A DNA stretch of 64,000 nucleotides from Ignavibacteriota bacterium (GTDB lineage Bacteria; Bacteroidota; Ignavibacteria; UBA10030), in assembly GCA_963701295.1 (NCBI GenBank), contig OY969585.1:2176001-2240000 (forward strand), given 5' to 3'. Positions 7,923 through 23,253 of this stretch are shown one piece after another. Each line of letters opens with the position of its first letter. Position 1 is the first letter of the stretch. The position numbers were made by a program, and so were the translations under genes. The notes under the pieces are model-generated. The model saw nothing but the letters and a program-made list of their open reading frames with translations. It was not told the origin of the DNA and ran no database searches.

Positions 7923-8303
7923 ATGAAAACAATAAACCAACCCCACCGAAGATCCATTCGTTTAAAAGAATACGATTATTCCCAGCCCGGAGAATATTTT
8001 GTAACCATTTGTACTCACGATCATAAATGCACATTAGGAGAAATTATAAACGGTGAAATGCAGTTGAATGAAATCGGAAAGATTGCAGAAGAAGAATGGT
8101 TACGAACAGCAATTATTCGTCCTGATATTCAATTGGATTTATATGTTATCATGCCGAATCACATTCACGGAATTATCGTTCTGAATGAAGGTAGGGGCAC
8201 GTTGCAATCCGATATACCTGTAGTGGCGAATTGCTATTCGCCCCAGGAGAAAGCACATAACAATCTAATCAACAACAGGGCGTATATCGATACGCCCCTT
8301 TAA
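7923..8303 (+). pseudogene. REP-associated tyrosine transposase (RAYT, Y1/HUH), C-terminally truncated
   Basis: RRSIRLKEYDYSQPGEYFVTICT and MPNHIHGII (HUH) present; the catalytic-Tyr half is absent. Confidence 0.85.
8191..8297. repeat. GTAG-type REP palindromes inside the RAYT gene
   Basis: GTAGGGGCACG (8191), GTAGTGGCGAAT-TGCT-ATTCGCC (8220), GGGCGTAT-ATCG-ATACGCCC (8278). Confidence 0.7.
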
Positions 8304-8695
8304 GGTACCAACTTGGCACCTTAAAGAGAGGCGAACATTCCAAATACCTCCCATTTGCTTTTACAGAGCAAGGTATTGCGATGCTTTCCGGTGTATTAGG
8401 CAGTCCACGCGCCGTACAAGTAAATATTGCGATCATGAGATCGTTTGTAAAATTACGGCAGGTATTAGCGACGCACAAAGATCTAGTACGGAAGCTGGAA
8501 GAAATGGAAAAGAAATACGACGCACAATTTCAGATAGTTTTTGATGCGATCAGGCAGGTTCTTGCTCCTCCTGAAAAACCCAGACGCGAGATCGGATTTC
8601 GGGTAAAAGAACCTATTGTACGATACAAAACGAGAAAGAACCAAAAAATGATGATTCGACCACCCCAGTCCTGCGGACTTCCCCTCCTCACTTGA
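8300..8695 (+). pseudogene. ORF6N-domain DNA-binding protein, 5'-truncated
   Basis: Frame from 8300 reads [51 protein letters not shown]; the N-terminal part is missing. Confidence 0.8.
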
Positions 8696-8808
8696 GGAGG
8701 GGTGTAGGGGTGGTGACTTTACTGCAATGAGTTCTTGCCCTCCCATAGTAAAACAAGTATATTTAAGGTAAGAAAAATCCCGCACCAGCCGTAATTACCA
8801 CAGGGGAT
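8656..8808 (+). repeat. Direct-repeat unit 1: hairpin + sigma70-like promoter + leader
   Basis: CCCCTCCTCA-CT-TGAGGAGGGG; TTGCCC-17-TATATT (8735-8763); leader near-identical to unit 2. Confidence 0.85.
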
Positions 8809-8858: not shown

Positions 8859-9230
8859 ATGGGAATTATTTATAATCGTCCGAGACAAAAGCGATTACGA
8901 CAACATCTGAGAAACACTGCATCTGAAGCGGAGCGGCTGCTTTGGAGTTCATTAAAGGGGAGCCAAATGCTAGGATATAAATTTCGCAGTCAGCAAGGTA
9001 TCGAACAATATGTTGTAGATTTTTATTGTCCCGCAAAAAAAGTTGCTATCGAGATTGATGGAGAGACACATTGGACTGATCAGGAACAAAAAAGAGACCG
9101 TGAGAGGCAATGCTATATCGAAGCATTGGGTATTCGGGTACTGAGATTTACAAATGACGATGTTTATACAAATAAAGACGGTGTATTGAATACGATCTTT
9201 GCAGTCTTAGAAGGACAAGAAGAGGAATGA
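8859..9230 (+). CDS. DUF559 / Vsr-like endonuclease
   Basis: LRN..SEAERLLW, KFRSQ, YVVDFYC, IEIDGETH, VLRFTN motifs. Confidence 0.9.
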   Translation: MGIIYNRPRQKRLRQHLRNTASEAERLLWSSLKGSQMLGYKFRSQQGIEQYVVDFYCPAKKVAIEIDGETHWTDQEQKRDRERQCYIEALGIRVLRFTNDDVYTNKDGVLNTIFAVLEGQEEE

Positions 9231-9254: not shown

Positions 9255-9399
9255 TCGACCACCCCTTTCTCCCCTCCTCATATGAGGAGGGGTGTGGGGG
9301 TGGTGGCTTCAGCGAAAAACATCTCTTGCCCTCCGATGCGGAATATGATATATTTATGGTAAGAAAAATCCCGAACCAGCCATAATTACCACAGGGGAT
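9255..9399 (+). repeat. Direct-repeat unit 2: hairpin + sigma70-like promoter + leader
   Basis: CCCCTCCTCA-TA-TGAGGAGGGG; TTGCCC-17-TATATT (9326-9354); leader GGTAAGAAAAATCCCG.ACCAGCC.TAATTACCACAGGGGAT. Confidence 0.85.
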
Positions 9400-9489: not shown

Positions 9490-10083
9490 TTGATTTCTAA
9501 CATGCCAGACAGAGACGTCCATATAATCCGTAACCTGATTTATTTCCAGTACGCAAAGATTATTGCCCGCAGTGCATTTAAAGTTGCTGACGGCGAACAG
9601 GCAAAGAAACTGCATTACGGATTTATCAAGAATACTTTCCGCGATCTTAAATCCGGCGGTAAATCGTGGTCGCATATCGAGCGCGAGGATTGGCAGTTGG
9701 TAGAAGCCGAGAAGAAATGCATTTATTGCGGCACACCGGAAAATCTCCAGCGCGAACATATAGTGCCGAAGTCTTTGCGTATAAAGCCGGATTGTGAAAC
9801 GTGCGACCGCATTCAATCCATTCATAATCAGGTGTGGGCGTGCGGAGCGTGCAACTCCGCGAAAGGGACATTAGGGCTCTACGAGTTCTTTCGCAAGATG
9901 CACCCCGAGGAGAAAAAGTATTTCGATTTCATTCAACCGCTTGTAGAAAAGAAATATCTCAAGACGATTATGAAATGCCACGAATGTGCCGGTACATTAG
10001 ATGCCTCCGATCTTAACAAAGATGGAGAACTTTCAGTGTTGGATATTGATGATGCATTGAGGAGAGTTAAGTTACGAATTTGA
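9490..10083 (+). CDS. Zn-binding HNH endonuclease
   Basis: CIYCG..EHIVP..NQVWACGACNSAKG; the start may be the ATG at 9502. Confidence 0.85.
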   Translation: MISNMPDRDVHIIRNLIYFQYAKIIARSAFKVADGEQAKKLHYGFIKNTFRDLKSGGKSWSHIEREDWQLVEAEKKCIYCGTPENLQREHIVPKSLRIKPDCETCDRIQSIHNQVWACGACNSAKGTLGLYEFFRKMHPEEKKYFDFIQPLVEKKYLKTIMKCHECAGTLDASDLNKDGELSVLDIDDALRRVKLRI

Positions 10084-10256: not shown

Positions 10257-11654
10257 ATGGAAAAAATAACCTCACCTGCACCACGAATAATAATTGATCA
10301 TTTTGCTGAAGAAATTAAGAAAAGAAAGATTCCAACGGGACCAAAACCTTCAATAGCCGTTATTGATTTCCGGAATTGGAAGCGAGATGGAATTGAACGC
10401 CCGATAGAATTAGTGCCTTTGGAGTTATTAAGGTACAGAAAAGACAATGGTCGTATTGCATCTGATGTTATGGATTATGAAAGAAATCATGGTCGGTTGA
10501 AAGAAGAATCCAAAGAAGCACAAGAAATTATCAAAAAGTTTCTTCTCGAAAGGGACGAAAAGAAAACAGATGAATTAACGAAGAGCATACAACATGCAGG
10601 ACAAGATCAGCCTGCCATAATCACTTGCGATGGATTCCTCATAAATGGAAATAGAAGGAAAATGGTTTTGGAGTTTCTTCATAGCAAATATCCGCAAGAT
10701 GACAGATTTGTTACAATGAAAGTCGTGATTCTCCCGGGAAAGGATGATGAAGGCGGATCACCGACGCTTTACGATATTGAAAGGATTGAAAATCGCTATC
10801 AATTACAAAGCGATGGAAAGGCTGAATATTTTAATTTTGATAAGGCTTTGTCTATCAGAAGAAAAATTGAAATTGGAATGACTATCAAGGAACAAATTCT
10901 CGACGATCCAAAGTATATAAATATTTCTGACAAAGAATTAAAAGAAGCGATAAAGGATGTTGAACAGGAATATCTTAAACCGCTGGAATGTATTGATAGA
11001 TATTTAAGTTATCTAAAGAGAGAGGGGTTATATTCGACTATATCAGCAGGAATAAGCGATAGAGAAGGGCGCTGGTATGCCTTTTGTGACTATAGTAAAT
11101 TTTGGGAACAATTAAATGATGAATCTAAGCGAATTAATAAATTCAAAATAAAAGAAAAAGAAATAGGAAAAATAGAAGATGCCGCCTTCAAAATTATTAG
11201 AAAAAGAGAACTGAAGGATCTACCCAAAGTGCATCAAATAATGAGAAATTTTTCTAAATATATATCTCATGAAGATTCGAAAAAGGAATTACTAAGACTA
11301 AATGAAATAGAATTAGAATTACCAAAGAAGGAAAGGTTTGATAAAGAGGGCAAGGAATACGACGAAAGAGAAATTGATAGAAGATGGGGCGCAAAACATG
11401 AAACGGTAATAACAAGACAAGTTAAAATAGCTGATCAATTATATAACCGTAATCGAGATATAGGGGCTCCAATAGCTATCCTAGAAGCAGCGCTAGATAA
11501 ACTTAACCATGATGTTCTTGAAGATCCAGACATAGGAATCGACGACATTAGCAAAGCATTAAAATTGGCAATTCAAATTCGTGAGCGCGCACATGAACTA
11601 GAACAAAATTTTTATTCAATCAAGAAAAAACTAGACAACTTAGGGAAGAAGTAG
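10257..11654 (+). CDS. ParB/Srx-like N-terminal domain protein with long helical C-terminus
   Basis: SIQHAGQDQPAIITCDGFLINGNRR resembles the ParB GxxRxxA arginine patch; GAGG RBS. Confidence 0.65.
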   Translation: MEKITSPAPRIIIDHFAEEIKKRKIPTGPKPSIAVIDFRNWKRDGIERPIELVPLELLRYRKDNGRIASDVMDYERNHGRLKEESKEAQEIIKKFLLERDEKKTDELTKSIQHAGQDQPAIITCDGFLINGNRRKMVLEFLHSKYPQDDRFVTMKVVILPGKDDEGGSPTLYDIERIENRYQLQSDGKAEYFNFDKALSIRRKIEIGMTIKEQILDDPKYINISDKELKEAIKDVEQEYLKPLECIDRYLSYLKREGLYSTISAGISDREGRWYAFCDYSKFWEQLNDESKRINKFKIKEKEIGKIEDAAFKIIRKRELKDLPKVHQIMRNFSKYISHEDSKKELLRLNEIELELPKKERFDKEGKEYDEREIDRRWGAKHETVITRQVKIADQLYNRNRDIGAPIAILEAALDKLNHDVLEDPDIGIDDISKALKLAIQIRERAHELEQNFYSIKKKLDNLGKK

Positions 11655-11674
11655 TACTTCGACAGAGAGAAACG

Positions 11675-13567
11675 ATGCTAATCGATACACTGGAAAACGA
11701 GATATTAATTCATCTAGAAAATACCTCCTTGAAAACTTATCAGCTAAGTCAGCTCCAATTCTGGAAATTTACTAGCGAGGATATTAATAAAATATTAAGA
11801 TCGCGAACAGACAATGTTGAACTACTGCTTATTAAACTGATAGAATATTTTGAAGAGGAAAAGATTGTTTATGAATTATCTCAAATGTGCCAATCAATTG
11901 TTGAGAACAGAAAACAAGTTGTCGACGATATTAGAAATATCAAGGAAACAAGTTCTACTTTCAAAGAAGGTAAGTACGATAATGAAGATTTTGGCCAATT
12001 TGCTGCATTCATCAAGAGAAGCATACATCGGAAGTTACGTGATCACCAAATAAAAGCTGCTTATCATCTTTATATTAGCAGGAATGCTGCTAACTTTTCT
12101 GTCCCAGGAAGTGGAAAGACTTCTGTAGTCATCACGGTATACGAAAAATTACGATTAGAGGGCAAAGTAAATTTACTTTTAGTTATTGGTCCACCATCAT
12201 GTTTTGGACCTTGGAAGACGGAGTTTTATCAAACATTGGAACGTGACTCAAAAGCTCGAATATTATCTGGAAGCCAGCCTACCGACAGAAAAAATGAATA
12301 CTACAAGAGAGTTGAGGATCGAGGTGAACTCTATTTAACGACATTCCAAACTCTTTTGAATGATCAGGAAGACGTTATTACCTTTCTAAATAATAGGGAT
12401 GTTAAGGCTTTCTTGGTAGTAGATGAAGCACACTATATTAAACAGTTAAATGGTAATTGGGCACAATCTGTCTTGAAGACGTCAAAATATGCAACCTATC
12501 GTTGCGTTTTGACTGGTACTCCTACTCCTAAAAGTTTTTCTGATATCTTTAATTTGTTTGATTTCCTATGGAGTAATCCTCAAGTATTGACATCTGAGAG
12601 TAAAATAAAAATTCAACTCCACGAAAAAAGAAATGAATACGAAAAAGCAAAAGTCATACTGAAGAATGAAATTGGACCATTGTTTTATAGGGTTCGAAAG
12701 AGAGATTTAGGATTACTCCCACCTGTTTTCCATACACCTCAAATCGTTATAATGAATAGATATGAACAAATCATTTACAGAGCAATCGAAAATAAAATCA
12801 TAAACTTTGCCAAAGATGATTATTTAAAAAATATTGATCTAGTTACAAAACTCCGTCGTGGAAGGATTATGCGGTTAAGGCAATGTAGTTCCTATGCAAA
12901 GTTGATATCAAGTGCTATAGAGAACTATGATGAAACTATTATAGATGATTCAGAACTAGGCATCAATAATTGTGAATTACGATAATCTAGAGAAACCATC
13001 AAAATTAATAGCTCTAGAAAAACTTGTGAGATCTTTGAATGTCCAATCGCAAAAAGTATTGATCTGGTCGAATTTTGTTGGAAGTCTTGAAATGATTAAG
13101 AAATATTTAATAACTAATGGTATGAACTGTGAAATTATCTATGGAAAAACTCCGATAGAAAGCACTACAATTGACGATGAAAATACACGAGAGGCTATAA
13201 GGGATAGATTTGTAGATCCCAAAAGTGGTTTAGACATACTTATTGCCAATCCAGCTGCTTGTGCGGAGTCTATCTCATTACATAAGACATGTTTCATGCC
13301 ATCTACTATGATTTATCTTACAATTGTGCACAATATTTGCAATCTATGGATAGAATACATCGTATCGGTGGTTCCGAAATAAATATAGCAAATTATCACT
13401 TTCTCCAATATGCAAATACAATTGATGCCGATATAAAACATAATTTAGATCAGAAGGCAGAGAGAATGTATAACCTTATCGAAGAAGATTATGCTATCTA
13501 TTCTCTCAACATGTTTGAAGAAGACGATAGCGAAATTCAAGCATATAAAAGATTATTTGGAAATTAA
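11675..13567 (+). CDS. SNF2/SF2 helicase, split by two frameshifts (about 12960 and 13293)
   Basis: NFSVPGSGKT, VVDEAH and LTGTP in frame 1; ANPAACAESISLH in frame 2; QSMDRIHRIG (motif VI) in frame 3. Confidence 0.85.
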
Positions 13568-14514
13568 TGCCACAAAATTTTGATAATATTTCTTTCACAC
13601 AGCTATGTAGCCTAATTAATATTCTAGGCAGTACAAATAGTTCAGATATTGATTTCATTAAATCTAAATACTTTGATGTTGCAAGGGATTATGACGCTAC
13701 AGTTGAATTCCTTACTAACCTTTCTTTGGTTACGCAAAGAGATGATCAGATAACAATATCTCCTGAATTGAAATCGCTTTTCAAAGAAAAGAATAAGACA
13801 GATATTGTGAGAAACCTTCTGTTGCAGAAATTGATTAAACGGAATTCTCCATATAGAGAAGAATTACTGCGGTTTTTTAGATTATTTGAATTAAGAGGAA
13901 ATGACTGGGCTTGCACGCCAACAAAAGAGCAAAGACTCAAATACAGTGGAATTAGGAATCTATTGATAGATATGGATTGCATCGAACACGATTCCAAATC
14001 TGGCCAATATTTATTCCTATCTACAACAATATTGTTATTTGAAGAGTTACTTGATTCTTTTGCTATTTCGCGTAAAGAATTCTCTAAACTCCTTGAGAAA
14101 CGCGAAGAGTTGGGTAGAGAAGCGGAGTTGAGGATAATTGAATATGAGAAGCAAAGACTATTAGGTTGTCCAAACCTTATCAGTAAGATTAAACACTTGG
14201 CAGATATTAATGTGGGAGCAGGGTTTGATATTTTGAGTTTTGAAGGTGTGGATTCGGCCCAACCTGAAATGGAAAGATTAATAGAGGTTAAAGCTGTTTC
14301 TAAGTTTTCTTTCAAGTTTTTTTGGTCAGTAAATGAAGTGAATAAAGCAAAAGAAACAGGTAATAACTATTACCTATATTTATTGCCAGTAGAATCAAAA
14401 ATAGGATTTGATATAGACAAACTTCAAATTATACAAAATCCATTTTTAGAAATATTTAATAATTCCACAAAGTGGGCACAATCCTGTGAAAGCTTTTGCT
14501 TTAGACTAATCTAG
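13567..14514 (+). CDS. DUF3883 (PD-(D/E)XK) domain protein
   Basis: GREAE..YEK.RL, GAGFDILSF, IEVKA, FFWSVNE, YYLY at the C-terminus. Confidence 0.8.
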   Translation: MPQNFDNISFTQLCSLINILGSTNSSDIDFIKSKYFDVARDYDATVEFLTNLSLVTQRDDQITISPELKSLFKEKNKTDIVRNLLLQKLIKRNSPYREELLRFFRLFELRGNDWACTPTKEQRLKYSGIRNLLIDMDCIEHDSKSGQYLFLSTTILLFEELLDSFAISRKEFSKLLEKREELGREAELRIIEYEKQRLLGCPNLISKIKHLADINVGAGFDILSFEGVDSAQPEMERLIEVKAVSKFSFKFFWSVNEVNKAKETGNNYYLYLLPVESKIGFDIDKLQIIQNPFLEIFNNSTKWAQSCESFCFRLI

Positions 14515-14523
14515 AGAGAATTA

Positions 14524-15453
14524 TTGCTAATGACATCTAAAGAAAAAAAAAATAAGGGACACAAACTAAAACCCCCTTTTGGCTATTTCGGTTCAAAGCA
14601 AAGATTAGCGATTCATCTTTGTGCGAACTTACCACCGCACAATGCATGGGTTGAAGCCTTTTGTGGATCAGCTTCTTTGACTCTTGCAAAAATCCCAGCA
14701 CCAATAGAAGTCATTAACGATTTAGACAAAGAAATCATAAACCTTTTTCGTCAATTAAGAGAGAACCATGGAAATTTATGTAGAATGGTTGAACTTACTC
14801 CGTATGCAAGGGAAGAGTTGAACATTGCCCGAACAAAAGGAAAGAAAATTAACGATCTAGAACGAGCACGGCGTTTCCTTGTTTCTGCTATGATGGCGAT
14901 CAACGGAGTTTTTGGAGAAGAACGAGGGGGCTTTTCATACTCTGATTCATACTCCCGACATGGTAATGATGCTCGTGTCAATAGATGGTATAACTTGTCA
15001 AATAGAATTTCTGAGGTTGTTGAAAGATTGCGCGGTGTGAGGATTGAGAATAAGGACGCTCGACAATTGCTTAAGCAGTATATTGATAGACCCGGTACGT
15101 TAGTATACCTAGATCCTCCATATCTTGCGGAGAGAACTAATGGGTATAATAGAGATGCAAATAATATCGAGTTCCACAAAGAACTTCTAGACATTGCAAA
15201 TGAAGCTAAATGTATGATTTTCATAAGCGGCTATGATAATGAACTTTACAAAAAAATGCTTACCAAAGACAATGGATGGTCAACTAAGAGAATTAAAACA
15301 ATCACGAAAGATTCAAGTGGACAAAGTCACAAACGGACGGAAGTTGTTTGGATGAATAAACACTTTAGGAAAGCACAAAAATCAAAACATGTACCAATGA
15401 GACTGTCTGAAAAGGAACGAAAATCAAATAAAATTAATCCATCTAGAGAATGA
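14524..15453 (+). CDS. Dam/D12-class N6-adenine DNA methyltransferase
   Basis: YFGSK, EAFCGSAS, EVINDLD, VYLDPPY motifs. Confidence 0.92.
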   Translation: MLMTSKEKKNKGHKLKPPFGYFGSKQRLAIHLCANLPPHNAWVEAFCGSASLTLAKIPAPIEVINDLDKEIINLFRQLRENHGNLCRMVELTPYAREELNIARTKGKKINDLERARRFLVSAMMAINGVFGEERGGFSYSDSYSRHGNDARVNRWYNLSNRISEVVERLRGVRIENKDARQLLKQYIDRPGTLVYLDPPYLAERTNGYNRDANNIEFHKELLDIANEAKCMIFISGYDNELYKKMLTKDNGWSTKRIKTITKDSSGQSHKRTEVVWMNKHFRKAQKSKHVPMRLSEKERKSNKINPSRE

Positions 15454-22182: not shown

Positions 22183-23253
22183 ATGTTCCTCTACAAGCAT
22201 TCCAACGGTGTTTATTATCTGTATTTTAAGAACGAGCAAGGCAAAAGACAAAAAGTCTCTACTCGTTGCACATACAAAGCCGATGCAATGAATTTCTTGC
22301 AGTCCTTCAAAAGGGACGAATACGAGAGAAGGCAGAAAGCAAAACATAAGCTTCTATCTGAATTCCTCATTGCTTTTCTTTCCTATGCTGAAGGAAGCTT
22401 CTCTGAGGGCACTGTAGCAATCTACAAGGCAACACTCAAGAACTTCATCGAATACATCGGAGACTTTCCGCTTGCCAATTACACGCCTCAGCATTTTGAT
22501 ATTTACAAAACTGAGAGACAAAAGCCTGTCAAAGTGGTTACGGTTAAAGATGGTCACACAACAGAGAAGGAGAAGATTGTCAAGCCGGTAACTGTCAACA
22601 TTGAACTCCGAGCGCTGAGGGCTTTCTTCAATACAGCCGTCCGGTGGAAGCTCCTCGAAAGTAATCCATTCAAAATCCAACTTGTGAAGGTACCGGAGAA
22701 TAAACCGACTTTCATCACAAAGCAAGAGTTTCAAAAACTGCTCAATGTGATAGAGGAACATTGGTTGAAGGAAGTGATAATTTTTGCCGTCAGTACCGGA
22801 TTGCGGAGAGGTGAATTAGTGAACCTGAAATGGGAAAGTGTTGACCTCAGCCGGAAGTTGCTCTACGTTGAAAGCACTCCGACGTTTCGCACGAAAGCCG
22901 GAAGAATGAGAATCATTCCATTGAATGATACTGCTCTCTACCTTCTGCAATCAAGGCAAGGTAAAGATACGTCGAGCTATGTTTTCACATTGAGTGGAAA
23001 GCTGTTGTTTGCCGATTGGATTACTCACTTATTCAAGCGATATGTGCGAAAGGCAAACCTCAGCAATCAGAGCATACATTTCCATTCACTCCGGCACTCT
23101 TTTGCTTCTTGGCTTGCTCAGGACGGCACTTCTGTTTATGTGATTAAAGACCTACTTGGTCACTCGGACGTGAAAACAACGCAGATATACAGCCATTTAC
23201 AGCCGGAGAGCTTGCATGCTGAGGTGAATAAGATTTCGGTATCTATGAATTGA
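22183..23253 (+). CDS. Tyrosine integrase
   Basis: TGLRRGEL, HSLRHSFASW, LLGHSD..TTQIY catalytic motifs. Confidence 0.95.
   Translation: MFLYKHSNGVYYLYFKNEQGKRQKVSTRCTYKADAMNFLQSFKRDEYERRQKAKHKLLSEFLIAFLSYAEGSFSEGTVAIYKATLKNFIEYIGDFPLANYTPQHFDIYKTERQKPVKVVTVKDGHTTEKEKIVKPVTVNIELRALRAFFNTAVRWKLLESNPFKIQLVKVPENKPTFITKQEFQKLLNVIEEHWLKEVIIFAVSTGLRRGELVNLKWESVDLSRKLLYVESTPTFRTKAGRMRIIPLNDTALYLLQSRQGKDTSSYVFTLSGKLLFADWITHLFKRYVRKANLSNQSIHFHSLRHSFASWLAQDGTSVYVIKDLLGHSDVKTTQIYSHLQPESLHAEVNKISVSMN

Follow-up and report, generated by a model that had tools for sequence, protein, structure and literature searches.

A compact ParB-like, SNF2, nuclease and methylase cassette in an Ignavibacteriota genome, apparently an unnamed relative of AbiR

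AbiR of the Lactococcus lactis plasmid pKR223, the closest described relative of the locus analyzed here, consists of AbiRa, AbiRb and AbiRc together with the methylase M.LlaKR2I. According to the accessible portions of its description (PMC13064643), AbiRa is sigma70-like, AbiRb is ParB-like (aligned to the structure 5K5D), and AbiRc combines a nuclease with a SNF2 ATPase; the system requires the LlaKR2I methylase and is toxic without it, is described as abortive, lowers phage DNA replication, and acts by a mechanism that is not known. AbiR is mentioned also in PMC13712998, PMC12278908, and PMC3632139, as far as their accessible text goes. Known since 2000, it still lacks a mechanism, and the accessible part of a 2026 review still calls the joint working of its parts unclear. 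We analyzed a four-gene cassette within a 64,000-nucleotide (nt) stretch of an Ignavibacteriota bacterium genome (assembly GCA_963701295.1, contig OY969585.1, positions 2,176,001 to 2,240,000; hereafter the window), which appears to be a widespread, so far unnamed AbiR-type variant. In window coordinates, and with protein lengths in amino acids (aa), its genes are as follows:

Gene A, 10257-11654, forward strand: 465 aa, ParB/Srx-fold protein.
Gene B, 11675-13567, forward strand: ~630 aa, short SNF2 ATPase, frameshifted.
Gene C, 13567-14514, forward strand: 315 aa, winged-helix region plus NOV_C/DUF3883 nuclease fold.
Gene D, 14524-15453, forward strand: 309 aa, D12-class N6-adenine methyltransferase.

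On balance, this cassette is probably an AbiR-type anti-phage system, restriction-like and gated by methylation, whose motor, formed by A and B, would bring a nuclease to unmarked DNA. An earlier reading of the window from its letters alone (the sequence-only reading) had described four co-oriented, tightly packed genes that are more AT-rich than the housekeeping DNA, and coordinates and composition bear this out. A and B are separated by 20 nt, B and C share a TAATG overlap at 13567, and D begins 9 nt after C at a TTG start codon (15 nt at the alternative ATG at 14530). The GC content of the cassette is 34.3%, against 42.4% across the 3.64-Mb one-contig genome, and only 8 of 1820 windows of cassette size are equally low in GC (the lowest 0.5% of the genome). 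Promoter and terminator scans remained at chance level (27 versus 22.1 and 3 versus 2.8). The domain calls were likewise upheld, with Pfam SNF2-rel_dom in B, NOV_C/DUF3883 in C, and MethyltransfD12 in D, and with A ParB-like by fold and motifs.

The cassette is conserved as a unit. We compared the window with the best 80 of 142 confirmed genome loci found through gene A, giving 81 loci that span 20 named phyla (five loci are without a phylum). A, B, C, and a methylase gene occur together in 56 of the 81 (55 of the 80 relatives plus the window), so this neighborhood survey confirmed that the four genes co-occur elsewhere. The ParB-like and SNF2 genes are the constant core of these loci. C and D could resemble the pair of a type II R-M (restriction-modification) system, with a stand-alone endonuclease and its cognate methylase working without a motor, but C was never seen without both core genes, in a set selected on A. 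A methylase gene is present in 74 loci, including all 63 that are not cut by an edge, and the seven loci without one all end less than 400 nt from the locus edge; it mostly comes last in the gene order and is sometimes first or inverted. The HNH and DUF559 genes that the sequence-only reading placed beside the cassette are real, but each turns up in at most two of these 81; they are passengers and were rejected as components. A 300-aa gene upstream of A in four Bacteroidota loci, with no family match and with paralogues nearby, was treated as a neighbor. Among 40 related genomes, A has a match in two, one of which is a fragmented four-gene cassette; this sparse occurrence, like the low GC content, points to mobility. 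A locus of the same genus (L120, G008:C11:41000-60000) holds all four genes in fragments, reflecting a noisy assembly or decay. Searches of IMG/VR returned 18 pattern matches, none of them confirmed, and phage sequences gave four weak partial matches.

Profile comparison shows A and B to be homologues of the ParB and SNF2 genes in AbiR-layout loci. This branch was sampled as the best 80 of at least 528 confirmed metagenome loci, in which the usual order is sigma-like gene, ParB, SNF2, and 11 of 59 long SNF2 proteins measure at least 800 aa. With the profile of the window's family, the SNF2 proteins of the AbiR-layout branch (n = 75) score a median of 285 bits, compared with 90 bits or less for solved SNF2 structures under a similar, not identical, profile. 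The ParB proteins of the branch score a median of 61 bits, and hhalign gave 98.9% for the two ParB families over 150 columns; the homology covers only ~150 N-terminal residues, at 27–30% identity. One locus, L187, has the full layout of AbiR plus restriction-modification (R-M) genes by Pfam (sigma-like, ParB, PLD-SNF2, and Sau3AI/C5-methylase), L166 has three genes of that layout, and L170, L194, L196, and L197 have similar cluster sets. A tblastn search with A found 69 plasmids, with partial matches at 24–29% identity among the 40 listed, and all seven plasmid regions opened carry a ParB-like gene followed directly by SNF2. Their neighbors include type III R-M genes (L081, L086), Dcm and MutH/Sau3AI genes (L083, L084), a sigma-like gene (L085), and DUF3883 (L087); L082 has no R-M gene in the stretch opened. 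No AbiR model was matched in the PADLOC or NCBIfam scans, and no protein named AbiRb or AbiRc appears among the 120 matches or the cluster members listed.

The C-terminal ~270 residues of sigma-like proteins in this branch have their counterpart in the second half of a MutH/Sau3AI-family protein, with E values down to 1e-23. Proteins sharing the region are the following:

L187:2844-5684
L188:5326-7989
L084:10687-12246

This common region suggests that AbiRa-like proteins may be site readers, which could explain the methylase dependence. In L160, L193, L198, and L200, a ~500-aa relative stands in place of the sigma-like protein. SbcC-like genes lie beside eight loci of the branch and SbcD-like genes beside seven, both upstream and downstream (L127, L128, L130, L133, L136, L140, L159, and L167).

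Gene A was missed entirely by the PADLOC, Pfam, and NCBIfam scans, and the system is therefore probably under-counted. It belongs to no Pfam family and falls below all Pfam ParB thresholds, as does its kin: the best 120 relatives are at least 51% identical to A, and none has a Pfam family. Relatives make up 1525 of 7995 scored candidates, and 1612 cluster representatives match at E <= 0.001. The protein comprises a ParB/Srx fold, a helical middle domain, and a C-terminal helical hairpin, and its top structural match is 5K5D. A nucleotide-pocket motif, G131-N-R-R134, is invariant in 119 homologues, as are E178, N179, and Q182; together with the fold, these motifs point to a putative switch driven by cytidine or another nucleoside triphosphate (CTP/NTP).

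Gene B carries the Walker A (GSGKT), Walker B (DEAH), and VI motifs of its ATPase, preceded by a family-specific N-terminal domain through which it is predicted to bind A. The predicted complex of A (residues 5–465) with B (residues 1–425) scored 0.74 in three runs, against 0.00 for the best of three controls; the runs agree in at least 90% of contacts, and the partner has a predicted local distance difference test (pLDDT) value of 76. Among solved complexes, 116 of 157 reach the score mark applied, against 2 of 215 mismatched pairs; this calibration holds only roughly for the alignments used here. Since the A profile has no match among PDB sequences (0 matches), memory of a like complex is a less likely source of the score. 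The predicted interface joins A 300–311 with B 20–29 and 54–61 and is conserved on both sides: in A, G304 (77/79), E307 (74/79), and F311 (75/79); in B, Q26 (62/62), K54 (57/62), and Y58 (54/62). Only 12 of the first 110 columns of B reach 80% conservation. These results support A-B binding, as a prediction.

Gene C combines an N-terminal winged-helix region, a long helix, and a C-terminal PD-(D/E)xK nuclease fold in which E187, D221, and E240-V-K242 are invariant in 52 homologues; fold and catalytic residues suggest that it cuts DNA. Residues 170–277 match PADLOC PD-T4-1 (E 6e-18), and an atlas search with residues 1–170 gave a best score of 0.84, which we treat as a lead only. The effector slot filled by C is exchangeable. 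Where B and a methylase stand without C, nine loci have a PNP_UDP_1 nucleosidase upstream, three have an HNH domain fused to the N-terminus of A, four have an unassigned neighbor, and one lies at an edge. HNH-A fusions number four in total (weak Pfam HNH_2 matches, E 6e-4 to 0.02), the fourth on a short contig, and that of L063 matches PADLOC endonuclease effectors at E 2e-18.

The methylase, by comparison, is obligatory yet exchangeable. Gene D, with DPPY at 197–200, is of the D12 class (Dam/DpnII-like), which is found in 52 of the 81 loci; in 22 others the gene is of the unrelated N6_N4 class (TSPPY motif). On a quick ParB tree the class changes at least eight times, five of these changes being forced by well-supported branches. 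Median identity within the two methylase families (55% and 58%) exceeds that of A (48%), B (49%), and C (29%), which suggests a fixed target, unlike the diversifying specificity of classical R-M systems. The beta-class enzyme is 56–59% identical to methylases of small plasmids encoded beside RE_EcoO109I ("PmeII family") endonucleases (L122, L123, and L124), so a type II R-M system may have been its source; the accessible text of two papers naming PmeII gave no usable target site. Strong under-representation across the whole genome affects CTAG (0.56), GGCC (0.59), CCWGG, and GGWCC, with no link to D established.

Taken together, these features fit a scheme in which D, by its methylase family, would methylate a fixed short chromosomal site and so mark self. 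A, given its fold and motifs, would bind DNA as an NTP-gated clamp or loader and hold B through the predicted contact between A 300–311 and B 20–61, while B, like other members of the SNF2 family, would translocate on double-stranded DNA with ATP. On unmarked DNA, the motor would deliver or activate C, whose winged-helix region may grip the DNA while its PD-(D/E)xK domain cuts; in relatives, HNH fused to A or a PNP-family nucleosidase would take this place. If the methylase were missing, the system would turn on its host, as AbiR reportedly does. Within this scheme, gene linkage, folds, catalytic motifs, and the swaps of methylase and effector are observed and the A-B contact is predicted, whereas the nucleotide switch, translocation, methylation gating, and anti-phage activity are putative. 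The sequence-only reading had arrived at a methylation-linked, motor-driven, defense-like system, and the domains and the conserved unit support this part; it did not name AbiR, a distant relative and the closest described system.

The nucleosidase of nine loci would fit a cell-wide depletion of nucleotides or of the S-adenosylmethionine (SAM) pathway better than the cutting of one genome, and it thereby favors a guard or abortive-infection system, in which the A-B motor monitors methylation or the methylase itself and the cell is killed or arrested when DNA goes unmarked owing to phage replication or an anti-restriction protein. The abortive, replication-lowering, methylase-dependent behavior reported for AbiR in the accessible text points the same way, as does the frequent position of the AbiR-like pair beside a complete R-M system, either type III (L081, L086) or Sau3AI-like (L084, L166, L187). 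We regard both the monitoring role and the resulting cell death or arrest as unlikely.

The distribution and the damage pattern of the loci bear on a selfish addiction module, with the methylase as antidote, a motor-nuclease that kills cells losing the cassette, and phage defense as incidental. Its spread over 20 phyla is patchy, with repeated transfer, and serine recombinase genes lie near seven loci. Among the loci, A is broken in 1 of 81 (a biased count, the loci having been found through A), C in 2 of 60, D12 methylases in 0 of 52, and beta-class methylases in 1 of 22; B is often disrupted while D12 remains intact in 52 of 52, as if hosts disarm a toxin, a pattern that is weak once gene length is counted and given that loci were selected on intact A. 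For simple addiction, a three-protein, ATP-driven machine would be expensive; an anti-phage phenotype has been measured for the related AbiR (in the accessible text), and addiction does not exclude defense. We hold this explanation to be improbable. ParB and SNF2 folds also have segregation and remodeling roles in general, which would allow a non-defense DNA-processing or regulatory module (e.g., for mobile-element segregation or remodeling) with an orphan methylase. Across the 81 loci, the cassette has no conserved parA, integrase, or conjugation gene as a neighbor, so a known role of this kind cannot be assigned either way; the obligatory methylase, the swappable nuclease, HNH, and nucleosidase effectors, and the homology to AbiR-type loci make it highly improbable.

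Several results weigh against a methylation-gated AbiR-type system. The likeness to AbiR was judged from architecture-matched loci and not from pKR223 sequences, and neither the window nor the 80 loci have a conserved sigma70-like gene corresponding to AbiRa within 10 kb. No palindrome stands out as avoided in the cassette genes relative to the flanking genes, and no target motif was recovered. The methylase types are not cleanly separated by any column of A, B, or C, and the six best columns of A fail once kinship is allowed for (three independent pairs, giving low power). The C-less loci, 17 in all, keep B and a methylase, so C is not a universal site reader. Finally, B is broken in 8 of the 80 loci that have it, and in the window it contains two breaks within 1.9 kb, against ~0.05 expected from the assembly background (frame changes in 5 of 140 orthologues, or 58,486 codons, compared with 340 kb of a same-genus genome).

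In the window, B consists of three open reading frames (ORFs; 436, 136, and 92 aa) that fall on positions 2–427, 432–552, and 542–630 of a 632-position family model. As they tile one family profile, B is one gene with two single-base frameshifts; A, C, and D each match their own family profile in one frame. The two breaks are as follows:

Frameshift 1, 12957-12960, forward strand: one extra base, placed by homologue alignment.
Frameshift 2, 13291-13294, forward strand: a T run short of one base.

At 13291, two ~98%-identical short-read contigs, obtained in two studies, retain the T, and frameshift 1 is spanned by none of the outside contigs listed. A programmed frameshift was rejected, since the window's positions are not hit again among the breakpoints of the eight broken loci. 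Elsewhere, B of L077 is interrupted by a DDE transposase (L077:12422-13771) at about profile position 272; the SNF2 gene of L004 is broken near the same profile position.

These observations raise the prospect, nearly an even one, that the window's copy is a recent pseudogene remnant with a dead motor, in which only the methylase may still act. The excess of breaks over the expectation for a gene of such length, the genuine inactivation of B by the insertion in L077, and the fragmented cassette of the same-genus genome G008 argue for it. Against it, each break changes one base at a short base run, other such breaks occur in this one-contig assembly, the second is absent from the two ~98%-identical contigs, no in-frame stops occur, and A, C, and D are intact with their catalytic motifs. 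Assembly error and recent pseudogenization appear equally plausible as the origin of the frameshifts, and we consider it roughly as probable that the window's copy is functional as that it is not.

Should the methylation-gated reading hold, the cassette would be a restriction-like machine with a SNF2 motor driven by a ParB nucleotide switch, and with methylation-based discrimination of self from non-self tied to both DNA-cutting and nucleotide-depleting outputs. A broader proposal, which we put forward tentatively and think rather doubtful, is that a ParB-type NTP-gated clamp on a SNF2 translocase is a general, previously unrecognized methylation-reading motor of prokaryotic immunity. Conceivably, this motor plugs into alpha-class N6-methyladenine (m6A), beta-class, C5, and type III Mod methylases, and its effectors might equally range over winged-helix DUF3883 nucleases, PLD, HNH, and PNP nucleosidases. 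AbiR would then be, speculatively, one instance, and the four-gene cassette the minimal self-contained form.

The 197-aa protein encoded directly upstream of the cassette (9490-10083) is HNH-like, with an HNH_5 match below cut-off (E 7e-5) and weak PtuB matches. The DUF559 gene (8859-9230) is flanked by ~130-nt direct repeats at 8680-8808 and 9270-9399, each with a hairpin-like part and a conserved 51-nt tail, 90–94% alike and with only two copies in the genome; repeat pair and gene look like a small mobile or duplicated unit. Two truncated genes lie further upstream; the match of one (7923-8303) is confined to the N-terminal part of a 186-aa L004 protein, and that of the other (8381-8695) to the C-terminal part of a 170-aa L029 protein. 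We presume that the truncated genes in 7923-8695 are RAYT-like. A 356-aa ORF at 22183-23253 presumably encodes a tyrosine integrase, to judge from its RHSFAS motif, and a further AT-rich stretch lies near it at 23–27 kb.

Comparison with known systems places the cassette nearest to AbiR. The sequence-only reading did not recognize it as a classical R-M, BREX, or DISARM system, and PADLOC and NCBIfam scans agree in giving no full-length match; Hma/BREX-related systems, DISARM, Zorya, and Dpd were rejected, as their partial matches to the ATPase core lie far below the cut-offs. Its lead towards Azaca was not borne out. Azaca, for which the accessible preprint text (bioRxiv 10.1101/2025.07.10.664194) reports ATP-dependent cleavage and a preference for phage T4 DNA, resembles the cassette in pairing an SF2 helicase with a nuclease. 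However, it is built from DUF6361, a PLD-type nuclease, and an SF2 helicase, and the same accessible text mentions neither the ParB nor the methylase that the cassette has; no Zac model is among the PADLOC matches listed, and Azaca was rejected, as no window protein matches DUF6361 or PLD. Hma/DUF499 systems, in the accessible parts of PMC11232893 and PMC12839542, likewise unite a SNF2 motor, a PD-(D/E)xK nuclease, and an N6-methyltransferase in one operon, and in HmaA the nuclease on the SNF2 protein is essential for defense (PMC11232893). HmaA fuses motor and nuclease, whereas B and C are separate in all loci having C; Hma is also defined by a DUF499 ATPase absent from the cassette's conserved genes, has no ParB partner as far as those texts go, and its PADLOC HmaA model matches only part of the ATPase of B (E 4e-3 to 6e-7).

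Single components have relatives of their own. PD-T4-1 is a stand-alone DUF3883 nuclease whose likeness is confined to the nuclease domain of C, with no such operon. The CTPase clamps ParB, Noc, and KorB carry a GERR motif where gene A has GNRR, and A differs from them further by long insertions and by having no parA partner. Full-text literature searches did not find the four-gene set described, with subscription journals and the preprint supplements of large defense screens, which may list it as a candidate, beyond their reach; apart from papers on Tiamat and Asgard, the partial matches concern other systems.

With AbiR, the cassette has in common a ParB-like gene followed by a SNF2 ATPase of the AbiRc subfamily, as well as a nuclease domain and an associated methylase. 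In AbiR the nuclease is N-terminal on the SNF2 protein (PLD in AbiR-layout loci), whereas the ~630-aa B has no PLD and the nuclease is the separate C. The AbiR methylase comes from a neighboring type II R-M system (C5 class in AbiR-layout loci), whereas the cassette has a dedicated N6-adenine or N4/N6 beta-class enzyme within the operon. We propose that the cassette works like AbiR but, as it lacks AbiRa and the fused nuclease, do not class it as a member. Being compact and self-contained, with effectors swapped in nature, catalytic residues defined for each of the four proteins, and an A-B interface open to testing, it is a relative well suited to study.

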